A DNA stretch of 64,000 bases from assembly GCA_965230295.1 (NCBI GenBank), contig OZ246001.1, positions 1,984,001 to 2,048,000 of the forward strand, in the 5' to 3' direction. Positions 1,494-46,724 of this stretch are shown here, in pieces. Numbering within the stretch: position 1 is the first letter of the stretch; every line of letters begins with the position of its first letter. A program made the position numbers and the translations under genes. This stretch comes from Marinicella sp. (GTDB lineage Bacteria; Pseudomonadota; Gammaproteobacteria; Xanthomonadales; Marinicellaceae). The notes below the pieces were generated by a model that made no database searches, had not been told where the DNA came from, and saw only the letters and a program-made list of their open reading frames with translations.

Positions 1494-2009
1494 CGTCTTG
1501 CCGGCGTAGGCCGGCATCCAGTGTCTTTCATATGGTATTCAATTATTGTTAATACTCAACTTAAGAGTTTTCTAAAAGACACTGGATCCCGGATCGCCAA
1601 AAGTAGGTCCATTAAGGAAGTCCGGGCAGGAATTGATCCAATCAATTCTCTGCATTCACCACGATGACGATAGGTGGCAAGATCAGTGGTAAATAAAGGG
1701 TCAGTATCCTTGAGCAGGATTTTTCTTAGTTCGTCATCCTGCGGCTTGACCGCAGGACCCAGGTGCGGGATGATAAAAACATTTGGATATTGTCCTAAAC
1801 TTAAAGGTCCACTTGCCTGGATTCTGTGGTCAAGCCACAGAATGACGGTAGAAGGAGCTTAACATTCCAACCTACGACTATTTCTGTTTCGAATTACCGG
1901 CGCAGGCCGGTATCTAGCGTCTTTTAACATTTTTTGATCCTACAGATAAATATGGAAGCTTCGCTTGTTTGCTGCGCAAACTGGATCCCGGATCGAGTCC
2001 GGGATGACG
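1494..2009. repeat. Three inverted REP doublets (REPIN-like) between convergent genes
   Basis: Inverted pairs 1494-1528/1575-1669, 1732-1763/1817-1848 and 1890-1924/1981-2009, of the CGTCAT-hairpin-ATCCAG type. Confidence 0.85.
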
Positions 2010-12720: not shown

Positions 12721-12766
12721 TGCGGGGCCGTCCCCATTTGAATAAGAGCGGTCAGGTCGTCCTGAC
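12721..12766 (-). ncRNA. Guanidine-II (mini-ykkC) riboswitch
   Basis: Two hairpins with ACGR tetraloops, GUCAGG-ACGA-CCUGAC and UGGGG-ACGG-CCCCG, separated by a 14-nt linker, directly upstream of an SMR gene. Confidence 0.9.
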
Positions 12767-13035
12767 TTCTGTAGAGGCCGCCATTGTAATGGCAATCCAA
12801 ATCATTTTCAAGACTGGACCATTGTCCTGATTAATGAAAAGTTTAGATTGAATTAATGCATATATAACACAAATAAAATATACATATATGAAATAAAATA
12901 TTCACCCAAATAAAACAATAAATTAACTTGGCTTGACTATCATGGTACCCGTTCTGAGGACAAAACAAATAATCATTTCTTGGAACACACCCCCAACATT
13001 TGGTTGGGTTTTTTTAACTTATGAGAGAGTAAACC

Positions 13036-28936: not shown

Positions 28937-29221
28937 ATGCAAAAAGCGTTAACATTAATGATTATGGTGGTTTTAGGTGGTCAAATCAGGGCTCAAGACA
29001 TCACAGAAAGTGACTTGTTTGGCATGAACCAAACCCATCAATTTGAAACGATTGATCAAATGGCGGCCTATATCAAGGACCAAAAACCAACCACTTACCG
29101 ATATTATCTAAGACTGAATGCCCCAGCCAGAAAACGAGTTTGGCAACAACTCCAAGCCGACCAAAATTCAGACATCACCGAAATGGTTTTGGAAGAATAC
29201 CGGCACCGACCCAGGGGGTGA
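28937..29221 (+). CDS. Small secreted hypothetical protein
   Basis: ATG downstream of GAGG, signal-peptide-like N-terminus, 94 aa. Confidence 0.65.
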   Translation: MQKALTLMIMVVLGGQIRAQDITESDLFGMNQTHQFETIDQMAAYIKDQKPTTYRYYLRLNAPARKRVWQQLQADQNSDITEMVLEEYRHRPRG

Positions 29222-29345
29222 TAACGACAGGTCTCACTGAATCAAACGGAGAACTGTCGGACAGTTCGACCAGCGCAGGTAATGAAAGCATGATGGTTTA
29301 CCTGAAAGGTAATAAGCCTTGCTTGAATACCGTAGCGCGTGCACT

Positions 29346-29716
29346 CGGTTAGGCAGATCATGTAAGAATGGCGATTTGACAAAGTCAAGAAGCCTTGATG
29401 GAATGATCGATAAGCCGTGAAGCTAAAGCTAAGCTGGTCGCTTCCGCATCGATCCCCAGGACGGGGTGAATGCAGAGAATTGTTGGGAACAATTCCTGCC
29501 TGCTCTCGCGACAGACCTACATCCTTGTAGGCCAGTCAGAGAGTGTAAGCCCGAGGTACTATGCTATGGCCGCTGCGGCCGCTTTCACTTTTGTAGGAAC
29601 AGACATGCAGTGCGAAGCAACTGCTCAGACAATAGTCTGTAAAGGTCGGTTTATTTGCGCAGCAAATATGAAGACCTGTCAGACCATGAACCAGAATGAA
29701 GTCCCAAGGACATTCC
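29346..29716 (-). mobile_element. Modular element, copy C (diverged, reverse orientation)
   Basis: Reverse complement of the A/B core with nested modules; the end near 29346 is unclear. Confidence 0.82.
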
Positions 29717-29860
29717 TTAATTGATTTGGTCATTAATTTTGGCTTCAAGGCCAGATGAATTATAATGACTGCTTTGATTCAATGAGCCTATCAATTTGAA
29801 ACAACAAATAAGATCCAACACATTTGATCACAACGGCCACTGTTGTCAGTGGGGGCCAAA

Positions 29861-31211: not shown

Positions 31212-33044
31212 ATGTGTGGAATCGTCGCAGTCAGTGCCAACCGAAATGTGGTTGATGTCATCGTTCATGGTTTACAAACTTTGGAGTACCGGGGTTATGA
31301 CTCAGCCGGAATTGCCATCATCACCGGAGATCAAATTGCTATACGCAAACAAGCCGGTAAACTCAGTAACTTAAAGCAGGAACTCAAAGAACAGCCCGTA
31401 GCCGGGCATGTGGGAATTGGACACACCCGCTGGGCGACACATGGCGAACCCACTTCAGCCAATGCCCATCCACATGATTCCAACAATGCCATTGCGGTGG
31501 TGCACAATGGCATCATCGAAAACTACCGACCCTTGCGGGAAAAACTCCTCGATGCCGGTTATGAATTCAAGTCTGAGACAGACACCGAAACCCTGGTTCA
31601 TTTGATTCATTATTACCAGGCCCAAGGCATGAACTTTTCGGCCGCCAGTCACAAAGCCATTGGTCAACTGGAGGGGGCTTATGCGGTGGCCATCACATGC
31701 ATGTCAGACCCTGATCGCATCATTGCTGCCCGCAAAGGCAGTCCGTTGGTGGTGGGTTTAGGCGATGGTGAAAATTTTGTCGCATCTGATGTTCAAGCCT
31801 TGATCAATGAGACCAATCAATTTTATTACCTCGAAGAGGGTGATGTGGTGGAAATCACCCAAAGCAGTTGTCAAATTTTTGATGCCACTGATCAGTTGGT
31901 TGAACGCGAGTTAAAAACCGTTACCCTGTCATCTGATGCCCTGACCAAAGATGGTTATGCGCATTACATGTTGAAAGAAATTCATGAGCAGCCCACAGCT
32001 GTGGCCAACACCATTGCTGATCGCCTGTATAACGATCGCATATCAAAGTACTTTATTGACCAGGACACCGCTGCCATATTGGAACAAGTGGAAAACATCC
32101 ACATCATAGCTTGTGGTACTTCATACCATGCCGGCTTGGTGGCCAGGTATTGGTTGGAAGCGATCACCCAAATTCCAACCCAGGTAGAAATCGCCAGTGA
32201 ATACCGCTATCGCAAACCAGTGGTTCCTAAAAACACCTTGTTCTTAACCATTTCACAATCTGGAGAAACGGCCGACTCACTGGCAGCGCTGCGTTTTGCC
32301 AAGACTGCTGACTATCTGTCCACATTTGCAGTGTGTAATGTGGCCAACTCAAGCCTTGATCGAGAAACGGACGTGTGTTTTTTGACCCATGCAGGCCCTG
32401 AAATTGGGGTGGCATCAACCAAAGCGTTAACCACCCAATTAACAGTACTGGCTTTGTTGACATTGAAGTTGGCTGAGATTAAAAACGTTGATGAAGCCGT
32501 GCGTAAAAACCTGGCCAAACAACTGATGACTTTGCCAGGTATCATCAACCAATCTTTGCTTTTGAATGACCAAATCAAAGCCATTGCAGAACGCATTGTC
32601 AGGCGTGACAATGCCTTGTTTTTAGGTCGAGGCGTGCATTATCCGATTGCTTTGGAAGGGGCTTTGAAGTTGAAAGAAATTTCATACATCCATGCCGAAG
32701 GCTATCCAGCAGGTGAGCTCAAACATGGTCCTTTGGCATTGGTCGACGAAAAAATGCCCGTGATCGCGGTCTGTCCGAATGATGAGCTGTTGGAAAAACT
32801 GGAATCCAACATTGAGGAAGTGCGAGCCAGGGGGGGGGAATTGTATGCCTTTGTCGATCACAAAAGCCAACATGGCTTACATGACCGGGTCAACCATTTG
32901 ATTGAGATGGAAGCCAGTGGTACCTTCACTTCACCCATTGTATTCAATGTGCCGTTACAGTTGTTGTCATATCATGTGGCTGTGTTGCGCGGTACCGATG
33001 TGGACCAACCCAGAAACCTGGCTAAATCTGTAACTGTAGAGTGA
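31212..33044 (+). CDS. glmS: Glutamine--fructose-6-phosphate aminotransferase
   Basis: MCGIV, HTRWATHG, SQSGET and PRNLAKSVTVE motifs. Confidence 0.98.
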   Translation: MCGIVAVSANRNVVDVIVHGLQTLEYRGYDSAGIAIITGDQIAIRKQAGKLSNLKQELKEQPVAGHVGIGHTRWATHGEPTSANAHPHDSNNAIAVVHNGIIENYRPLREKLLDAGYEFKSETDTETLVHLIHYYQAQGMNFSAASHKAIGQLEGAYAVAITCMSDPDRIIAARKGSPLVVGLGDGENFVASDVQALINETNQFYYLEEGDVVEITQSSCQIFDATDQLVERELKTVTLSSDALTKDGYAHYMLKEIHEQPTAVANTIADRLYNDRISKYFIDQDTAAILEQVENIHIIACGTSYHAGLVARYWLEAITQIPTQVEIASEYRYRKPVVPKNTLFLTISQSGETADSLAALRFAKTADYLSTFAVCNVANSSLDRETDVCFLTHAGPEIGVASTKALTTQLTVLALLTLKLAEIKNVDEAVRKNLAKQLMTLPGIINQSLLLNDQIKAIAERIVRRDNALFLGRGVHYPIALEGALKLKEISYIHAEGYPAGELKHGPLALVDEKMPVIAVCPNDELLEKLESNIEEVRARGGELYAFVDHKSQHGLHDRVNHLIEMEASGTFTSPIVFNVPLQLLSYHVAVLRGTDVDQPRNLAKSVTVE

Positions 33045-33077
33045 TTCTGGTCTGGTTAATTCCAACAAAGTTTATTA

Positions 33078-33272
33078 GGAAAGCTGCTGAGCAGCTTGAC
33101 CCGCCGAGCCGGTTGGTGAGCTTTGCGAATCAGAGGCGAAGAGCGCGAGGTAGTATGTCATGTTCGCCTCGGCAGCTACCGCATCCTGCTATCGCTGCAT
33201 ACTTACATCCATGTAAGCAGTCGCTTTCACTTTTGTCTGGAACAAAAGAGAATGAAGCCCCAAGAACATACC
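33078..33272 (-). mobile_element. Modular element, copy D (195 bp, lacks the central core module)
   Basis: Both ends of the family present. The core of about 100 bp is absent, and a GCTTACATGGATGTAAG module is present. Confidence 0.85.
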
Positions 33273-33300
33273 TTTGTTCCTGATTGCAGTTTGAATCTAT

Positions 33301-45956: not shown

Positions 45957-46056
45957 TTAAATCAGCACTGATTTAACCATTCCACAACACCTCACATTCA
46001 GAAACCGTCATTTCGCCACAGGTTAAGAAGTAGCGGATGAGTCCCAAGGACATTAA

Positions 46057-46688
46057 GGGATGTTCTTGGGGCTTCATTCTGGTTCATGGTCTGACAGGTC
46101 TTCATATTTGCTGCGCAAATAAACCGACCTTTATAGACTATTGTCTGAGCAGTTGCTTCGCACTGCATGTCTGTTCTAGACAAAAGTGAAAACGACTGCT
46201 TACATGGATGTAAGTATGCAGCGATAGCAGGCAGGAATTGTTCCCAACAATTCTCTGCATTCACCCCGTCCTGGGGATCGATGCGGTAGCTGCCGAGGCG
46301 AATATGACTTGCTACCTCGCACGCACTGCTGCATTCAAATCGGGCTTCTTTATCTTCGATAAAACCGCCCAACTTTCATTGCCTGTGCTATAACGCCATT
46401 CACATAAGGCTTCTTGACTTCGTCAAATCGCCATATGCTCATTGGCTATTCTCTTCGCCTCTGATTGGCTTACATGGAAGTAAGTCCTCTGAGGAGGCAG
46501 GATGCCGGTATCAGAGGTGACTGCACGGATGTAGGTCTGCCGCGATAGCCAGGAGCGATAGCGGCCGCTATAACAAAAGCTCACGGCTAATCAATCATTA
46601 CATCAAGGCTTCTTTGCTTTGCAAAATCGCCATGATTGCATGATTTGCCTAACCAGCTCGACGGGTCAAGCTGCTCAGCAGCTTGACC
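46057..46688 (+). mobile_element. Modular element, copy E (632 bp, most heavily nested)
   Basis: Copy A scaffold split by several inserted modules, some inside others. It is preceded by an inverted partial left end at 46036-46054. Confidence 0.85.
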
Positions 46689-46724
46689 TTGTATGACTTC
46701 TTGCACTGTTTTTTTTGTAAAAAG

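Follow-up and report, generated by a model that had tools for sequence, protein, structure and literature searches.

The smallest mobile DNAs with a defined target are among the least understood in bacteria, and several described systems bear on the element reported here. The small dispersed repeats of cyanobacteria, attributed to Elhai et al., are said to be tiny gene-less repeats nested in other repeats, with mobility read from filled and empty sites; no enzyme is known to us for these repeats. Insertion sequences that target REPs were reportedly described by Tobes and Pareja in 2006, and elements of the IS200/IS605 type carry irregular hairpins near their ends, as the element treated below likewise consists of irregular hairpins. 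The REPs and REPINs that go with RAYTs are portrayed, in the excerpts of PMC3116915 and PMC3733652 that concern them, as non-coding, intergenic, many-copy hairpin sequences of tens of nucleotides that leave no target duplication, all of which holds for our element. The CGTC-tagged REP super-family is delimited in the relevant portion of PMC3733652 by a CGTC tag, a stem of 8-9 bp beginning with AT, a loop of 4-5 nt and a CCA tail, and the authors of that paper state that REPs of this type have no apparent dedicated transposase.

We analysed a window, by which we mean the whole stretch of 64,000 nucleotides at genome positions 1984001-2048000 of a Marinicella sp. whose genome is a single contig of 4.008 Mb with a GC content of 44%. 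The original prediction, made from this stretch alone, placed a hairpin mini-element in three different hosts, and a search for its core, GCAGGAATTGWT-N3-5-AWCAATTCTCTGCATTCACC, did return three matches at the expected places, 1626-1660 (+), 29465-29499 (-) and 46231-46265 (+), with no match in any of 100 shuffles. Two of the copies are full forms of 49 nt with two hairpins, one at 29451-29499 on the minus strand inside a C-type module (71.5 bits) and the other at 46231-46279 on the plus strand inside an E-type module (recognised by its fold and by the covariance model); the third, at 1626-1662 (+), is a 3'-truncated form of 37 nt, comprising hairpin 1 and ATTCACCAC, ending in ...CACCAC and matching model positions 1-38 (E 7e-10). 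Taken together with the evidence that follows, the three are probably copies of a REP-like mini insertion element that is non-autonomous, measures some 50 nt, holds no gene and lodges in GGA-type sites of other hairpins.

Folded as single-stranded DNA, the 49-nt unit (copy at 46231-46279) is predicted to form both hairpins at -13.6 kcal/mol (z -5.3; none of 200 shuffles folds as well), hairpin 1 being a 12-bp stem with one bulged T and hairpin 2 a 4-bp stem. The 37-nt copy has the same 12-bp hairpin 1 with one bulged T, is without hairpin 2, and folds at -9.5 kcal/mol (z -5.5); its stem also shows the anticipated compensatory change, GAATTGAT/ATCAATTC versus GAATTGTT/AACAATTC. It is a 3'-truncated member of another sub-lineage, resembling copies in the genomes G006 and G022, and not a fresh copy of either full form.

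The host of this truncated copy (1585-1669, listed on the plus strand) is a CGTC-tagged REP that lies on the reverse strand (GGAT-CCCGGA-loop-TCCGG / GATGACG); the element interrupts it between 1625 and 1663. Copies of the REP head number 16, one of them an empty twin at genome 723058, whose loop contains the same unusual 23-nt insert as the filled REP and whose sequence runs …GTCCGG / GATGACG. A further empty REP of the same family lies at 1981-2009 (+; …GTCCGG / GATGACGG, from reading the sequence). On the reverse strand the host REPs follow the plan CGTC-ATCCCGGA-loop-TCCGGGAT-CCA, with an 8-bp stem from AT, a 4-5 nt loop and a CCA tail, and they number 19 perfect copies in the genome under a strict pattern and about 100 under a loose one; the REPs at 1585-1669 and 1981-2009 fit the features of the CGTC-tagged super-family as set out in the part of PMC3733652 that defines it. 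The 23-nt insert itself, CCAAAAGTAGGTCC(A/C)TTAAGGAA, found in the loops of two CGTC-type REPs (window 1597-1619, and the 723058 region, L030), is a second small lodger. The surrounding window segment 1-2020 comprises some 2 kb without a long gene match and is dense in REP-like repeats with numerous short matches in this genome and its relatives.

The two full copies sit in modules of a different make. The C-type host (29434-29533, -) consists of the hairpin CCTACAAGGATGTAGG followed by a stem GTCGC/GCGAC whose loop, AGCAG / GATGCGG, holds the element, and the E-type host (46197-46296, +, element included) of the hairpin CTTACATGGATGTAAG followed by a stem GCAGC/GCTGC with the loop AGCAG / GATGCGG. 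The junction in the REP reads CGG^GATGACG and that of copies C and E reads CAG^GATGCGG, so that the predicted split of G^GATG, with a boundary ambiguous by one G, is found in the flanks of all three. As had also been claimed, the elements of C and E are identical over 49/49 positions in hosts that have diverged: in an alignment, roughly one in four of the 33 host bases on the element's left differ by our own count, and the same alignment shows the two host stems to differ by compensatory changes. Gene conversion could account for the identity of the two elements. An E-type module without an element, copy D (33175-33195, -; junction between 33186 and 33185), aligns to copy E with one clean gap of 49 nt, and the empty sites proposed here and in the REP at 1981-2009 are both confirmed, the REP at genome 723058 being the better twin for the filled REP.

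Both modules belong to a modular, mosaic intergenic repeat of roughly 630 bp, present in the window at 46040-46700 (copy E), at about 29200-29800 (-) and at about 33000-33300 (-), and represented in the genome by dozens of full and partial copies assembled from optional modules; the E-type module with its element forms an optional insert of about 100 nt that is absent from many copies. The head of the repeat (…ATGTTCTTGGGGCTT) is conserved, AAGCTGCT-CA-GCAGCTT forms its terminal stem-loop, and three copies (genome 2200199, 2949592 and 249253) carry an optional 65-nt unit at CACGG^CGAAC. By eye, the E-type module shows the order of the element's parts read backwards, namely a ACATGGATGT hairpin, a short AT-rich linker and a hairpin closed by GCAGC/GCTGC with a GGA loop; as a family member in opposite orientation it finds no support in the model, which gives it just 6.6 bits (E 3.5), and we note no more than a resemblance.

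Across the genome, filled and empty modules stand at 17 versus 1 for the E-type and 4 versus 5 for the C-type, while all 12 D-type modules with GCAG / GATGC are empty, and the whole REP cluster around the copy at genome 2954558 has an empty tandem duplicate 200 bp upstream (L027). Precise filled and empty pairs are thus available in four host types, the E-type and C-type modules and the 3' and 5' sides of REPs. No target base is duplicated, and loss of an element would therefore restore the site. A rival notion is that the long form is ancestral, the element being an optional stem-loop of structured repeats and the "empty" sites deletions of it. The 17 to 1 ratio of the E-type modules agrees with this notion, as does the predicted fold, in which the unit nests as an extra helix inside the host stem; against it, one and the same unit of 37-50 nt occurs in unrelated hosts (the 5' and 3' sides of REPs, two types of module, hairpin loops in other genera), 12 D-type and 5 C-type modules are empty, and deletions would not repeatedly excise exactly this unit. 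We regard ancestral stem-loops as very improbable.

A covariance model built from eight copies, applied with a cut-off of E <= 4.5e-5, finds 32 copies of the mini-element in the genome. Seventeen lie in E-type modules of the mosaic repeat (one such module being empty), four in C-type modules (three with identical flanks and one of another subtype; five empty), three in REPs (two of them 3', at 1985626 and 2954558, and one 5', at 1934590), five immediately after the conserved head with which the mosaic repeat begins and three in head-to-tail tandem arrangements (2313065/2313116, 3283245). Hence 21 of the 32 copies are passengers in two amplified modules of the mosaic repeat, and there are at least ten further contexts. 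The tandems, with units 0-5 nt apart, occupy 2313065-2313162 (-) and 3283245-3283330 (-) in this genome and recur in other genera (L140, L153, L167); they could be junction-like products of the moving mechanism. When each half of the element was searched alone in the genome, no copy with cargo between the halves was found.

On the preferred reading, that of an insertion element, most copies in this genome would stem from amplification of host modules with the element inside, and the remaining contexts from separate insertions, fewer in number. That the element is small and inserts is upheld, and with it this part of the original prediction; that it is "recently active", as was also proposed, cannot be shown, because 21 of the 32 copies were carried along by host modules that became amplified and no filled and empty pair was obtained at the level of strains. 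Among sequencing runs, one, possibly that of the source, covers a share of 0.93 of the stretch and three metagenomes cover shares of at most 0.07; in contigs assembled from the runs the filled form is seen in one contig of 329 nt, the other pieces derive from repeats, and no skip of the element is seen. The nearest genomes show 70-76% identity in the flanking gene, and their intergenic region does not align. It is from paralogues only that we infer movement.

Comparison of copies beyond this genome lends the family a definite architecture. Hairpin 1 is laid out as GC(A/C)G, a stem of 6-8 bp of free sequence, the loop segment G(T/C)-TCC-N(N)-(A/G)C, the return stem, one or two bulged bases and C(T/G)GC, so that it is closed by GCNG/CNGC, has a conserved bulge of 1-2 nt and a loop beginning with TCC; behind it come a linker, ATT(C/T)(A/C)CC, then ACA-TCC-N-TGTGG and finally GTC, hairpin 2 being the sequence-conserved CCACA-TCCN-TGTGG. 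Over 104 distinct rows, 93.0% of the 1580 cells are standard pairs, as compared with 75.8% in shuffles and at most 49.7% with slid partners, and the cells changed on both sides number 286 versus 78 in shuffles (none of 500 shuffles reaches 286), in an alignment that was fitted to the model's hairpin 1 and to that extent favours the hairpin 1 helix. Hairpin 2, which stands outside the model, has 96.9% pairing with three pairs changed on both sides. Mismatches of the G·T kind in the stems number 33, against 24 of the A·C kind, a difference too slight to tell which strand folds. The mini-element has no match in Rfam 15, either in the window at the gathering score or in seven loci at E values up to 1; the same window contains a Guanidine-II riboswitch (mini-ykkC) at 12724-12768 (-), with 44.3 bits against a gathering score of 32.

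The distribution of this architecture is wide. The exact variant is all but confined to this genome: with up to two mismatches it occurs here 24 times, once in the genome G015 and in none of 39 other relatives. The covariance model detects the architecture at 1 to 6 copies per genome in 16 of the 23 further genomes of the genus, in none of 20 genomes from the four other genera of the family, and in 5 of 150 genomes from an even sample of the class. With one genome per species, the conserved tail GCATTYMCCACNTCCNTGTGG is found in at least 119 stretches where about 17 are expected by chance on our own estimate, and the model, which was built solely from the genus of the window, yields 111 matches in 100 loci, nearly all of full length. 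Among the matches listed, 80 loci come from Halomonas, Pseudomonas and related genera, Methylobacter, Methylovulum, Methyloglobulus, Kangiella, Shewanella, Sedimenticola, Marinicella, Lysobacterales and other Gammaproteobacteria. A Pseudomonas copy had no match among plasmids, phages and E. coli genomes, a search of limited sensitivity with a query of 51 nt. In the literature we found no description of such an element, and its 14-nt core was not found in papers.

In some of these relatives the family seems to lodge in other hairpins or in itself. In the sister species G015 (L002:1380-1560), one mosaic repeat holds two diverged copies: the first interrupts the loop of CCTACATGG^ATGTAGG, and the second sits inside the loop of a module that adjoins an empty module of the same kind. 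In Methylobacter and relatives (L125:1307-1403, L139:5240-5336, L137:4181-4276), an additional unit of some 47 nt interrupts the loop of hairpin 1; by eye this unit looks like another member of the family, nested within it.

Much the same kind of target recurs over all these genera. Within the genus the sites read cactg^gat on the 5' side of REPs, ccgag^gacgac and ccgg^gatgacg on their 3' side, agcag^ga(t/c)gcgg in module loops, and catg^gatg or catgg^atg in the loop of CCTACATGGATGTAGG-type hairpins; empty host hairpins occur in other genera as well, for example CTGCATGGATGCAGG in L122. The survey of 83 distinct flank pairs from all genera gives G as the preceding base in 73, and A in 60 and G in 20 as the following base, with GGA across the junction in 49 of the 83 (35 as GG^A and 14 as G^GA) and no GGA in 34. 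A host stem of at least 5 bp surrounds the site in 18 of 83 cases, as against 3.8% with re-paired flanks. The orientation of the element with respect to G^GA is fixed, and no target is duplicated beyond the one ambiguous G. The base of the hairpin 2 loop was compared with the base 5' of GGA, a single position, and is complementary in 17 of 47 cases versus 14.8 expected, so that no guide-like pairing shows at this one position. The survey of flanks had been set beforehand as a test of the prediction, under which random flanks, or travel with one and the same flanking sequence, would have told against it: the flanks are non-random, which leaves the reading unrefuted, and the 83 distinct flank pairs across genomes, with at least ten contexts in this genome, contradict travel with the same flanks. 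A separate small element in unrelated hosts, with a fixed G^GA, one orientation and no target duplication, is thus borne out.

The same survey bears on whether any enzyme need be invoked. Template switching or gene conversion between hairpin repeats, with the shared words G ... GATG as microhomology, would spread the element enzyme-free, and within this genome donor and recipient sites do agree in having GATG(C/A) to their right and G to their left, the majority of copies are carried by their host module, and hairpin repeats are known stalling sites. Microhomology events give variable ends, however, and here the same end points are kept in 83 flank contexts from many genera; moreover, the microhomology on the left is a single base, and copies from other genera have ATG, ACA or AGA to their right instead of GATG. 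Spread of this sort appears to us quite improbable.

If an insertion element is at hand, it would enter in one orientation between G and (G)A, usually a GGA exposed in the loop or at the foot of a small hairpin repeat, and it would land in REPs of the CGTC type, in those modules of the mosaic repeat that have a GGA loop and in other members of its own family, such nesting of elements building up mosaic repeats. An enzyme acting in trans would be needed because the element encodes nothing, and it would recognise folded single strands, as do the Y1 HUH transposases of IS200/IS605 and the RAYTs. The analogy draws on the hairpins with a conserved bulge, the strand-specific insertion, the fixed target of 2-3 bases and the lack of duplication; that the element works like a substrate of HUH Y1 single-strand transposition is, within the insertion-element reading, a tentative proposition of low confidence. 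The searches for a mover do not help it. The genome has one Y1 match, a RAYT gene of 187 aa at 1669261-1669824 (L001:1300-1863), which is flanked by inverted copies of a different REP (GGAGCG-TCGAC-TTCA-GTCGA…; about 18 copies under a loose pattern), and the gene with its flanking REPs may be read as a typical REP-RAYT layout. At 30 Y1 loci of the genus (92 kb in all, filters off), no element was found within about 1.5 kb (best E 0.68). Over the genus, ten genomes have both the element and a Y1 match, six the element alone, five Y1 alone and two neither, so that the two are unrelated; two of the six element-bearing genomes without a Y1 match are 99% complete. The attribution to HUH/Y1 transposition made at the outset is accordingly not sustained, the sole Y1 gene being a RAYT with a different REP and none of the 30 Y1 loci lying near the element, nor does this genome or any of these loci offer the Y1/RAYT gene flanked by the element's hairpin that was to be looked for.

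Other candidates fared no better. TnpB, an IS110 transposase and a reverse transcriptase gave no match in the genome in searches whose controls were positive, and the lack of a reverse transcriptase match argues against an RNA route; an IS91-type Y2 protein likewise gave no match in the genome, a weak negative in that the search was also without a match in any control genome. Among the matches listed, the 80 loci of other genera show no recurrent protein family beside the element, the largest cluster comprising 7 loci, and the gene that separates two copies in L145 resembles, to judge by its sequence, a housekeeping flavoprotein oxidoreductase.

Orientation with respect to replication and genes is of limited help in telling which strand is at work, and whether as DNA or as RNA. 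The leading-strand sequence carries the top strand of the element in 23 of the 32 copies by our own tally (GC skew minimum at 1.70 Mb, maximum at 3.84 Mb), a weak bias among copies that are mostly non-independent. With crude gene calls from long ORFs, the element lies between convergent genes 26 times versus 8 times between divergent ones, a REP-like excess, and beside co-directional neighbours 18 copies are in the top sense versus 16 in the bottom sense.

This last result matters for the view that the copies are primarily a functional RNA module and not a parasite, their reverse-strand GGA hairpins binding CsrA/RsmA in transcripts, with copies kept and perhaps spread on that account, a view compatible with mobility. 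The SELEX consensus of CsrA is RUACARGGAUGU, in which ACA and GGA do not vary and GGA occupies a hairpin loop, according to the portion of PMC7652899 that reports it, and the reverse complement of hairpin 2, CCACA-N-GGAUGUGG (ACA-N-GGAUGU), fits the consensus given there, as a match of sequence only. The loop of hairpin 1 on the reverse strand is NGGA(A/G)C, the insertion target is itself a GGA hairpin resembling a candidate CsrA site, and a single csrA gene is present in the genome. Conservation of hairpin 2 across orders extends beyond its pairing to its sequence, which suggests a conserved binding partner, and no copy was found on plasmids or phages with the 51-nt Pseudomonas query, sensitivity being limited. 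Yet the 18 versus 16 copies (crude long ORFs) amount to no strand bias towards neighbouring genes, the GGA hairpins of the host modules are on the strand opposite to the element, no Csr or Rsm family of Rfam matches, ACANGGATGT is just about threefold enriched in the genome (100 versus about 32 expected), and clean insertion into unrelated hosts is left unexplained. We found no paper that joins CsrA, REP and GGA. A functional module of this kind is in our judgement unlikely, and template switching, ancestral stem-loops and a purely functional RNA module are each weaker explanations than a mini insertion element.

A bolder combination of the two ideas is that of a self-targeting hairpin parasite of GGA loops, dispensing with a transposase of its own and moved by a conserved host activity on folded single strands, which would create, split and shuffle candidate CsrA-binding hairpins across Gammaproteobacteria and build mosaic, sponge-like repeats such as the family of about 630 bp. 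The shuffling would follow from the target and the reverse strand of the element both equalling a high-affinity CsrA site; the proposal strikes us as rather improbable. The family also raises a testable link to CsrA-binding hairpins.

The relevance of the mini insertion element, as we prefer to read it, is threefold. It offers an exceptionally clean handle, having a fixed covarying architecture, a target of 2-3 bases in hairpin loops, and sites both with and without the element in a single genome. The family also occurs in cultivated Pseudomonas, Halomonas, Shewanella and Methylobacter, in which genetics could be used to seek the mover, and the nesting accounts for the assembly of the mosaic intergenic repeats of this genome.

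Set against the known systems, the element shares with REPs and REPINs the character of a short, multicopy, intergenic hairpin repeat (32 copies; fold z -5.3 and -5.5) and the excess between convergent genes (26 convergent versus 8 divergent), but it consists of two unlike hairpins and not of one palindrome, occurs as single units or head-to-tail tandems (2313065/2313116, 3283245, L140, L153, L167) instead of inverted doublets, and inserts into REPs rather than being one. It also lacks the unpaired tag GTAG/CGTC attributed to REPs in the part of PMC3733652 that describes it, starting with GCAG, GCCG or ACAG, which are paired, and ending in GTC; and whereas a RAYT is flanked by its own REP, the element stands beside no RAYT in this genome or at the 30 Y1 loci of the genus. 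With IS200/IS605 and their miniature derivatives (PATEs) it has in common strand-specific insertion at a short fixed sequence and no duplication; it differs in measuring about 50 nt in all, in having conserved flanks on both sides (G before, A or GA after) and in that no TnpA or TnpB with the element's ends was found in this genome or genus. As every enzyme-dependent comparison came out negative, we file the element neither under REPIN/RAYT nor under IS200/IS605. A classical MITE has terminal inverted repeats and a target site duplication, and the element, with the ends GCAG... and ...GTC, has neither. From the cyanobacterial small dispersed repeats it departs in phylum, sequence, size and architecture, and by its GGA-type target and covarying two-hairpin structure. 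The mosaics around CGTC-type REPs (Neisseria dRS3/NIME), so far as the relevant part of PMC3733652 presents them, resemble ours in being interleaved and in using REPs as landing sites, with the difference that the lodger here is a gene-less element of 50 nt and not an IS or prophage; the mini-element is also like CGTC-type REPs, as described in PMC3733652, in being without an apparent dedicated transposase. Very small gene-less repeats nested in other repeats, such as REPs, the cyanobacterial small dispersed repeats and the mosaic arrays around CGTC REPs, are of a kind already known; what is new is that, with no associated transposase found, a conserved two-hairpin family with a GGA-type target is spread over many gammaproteobacterial genera.
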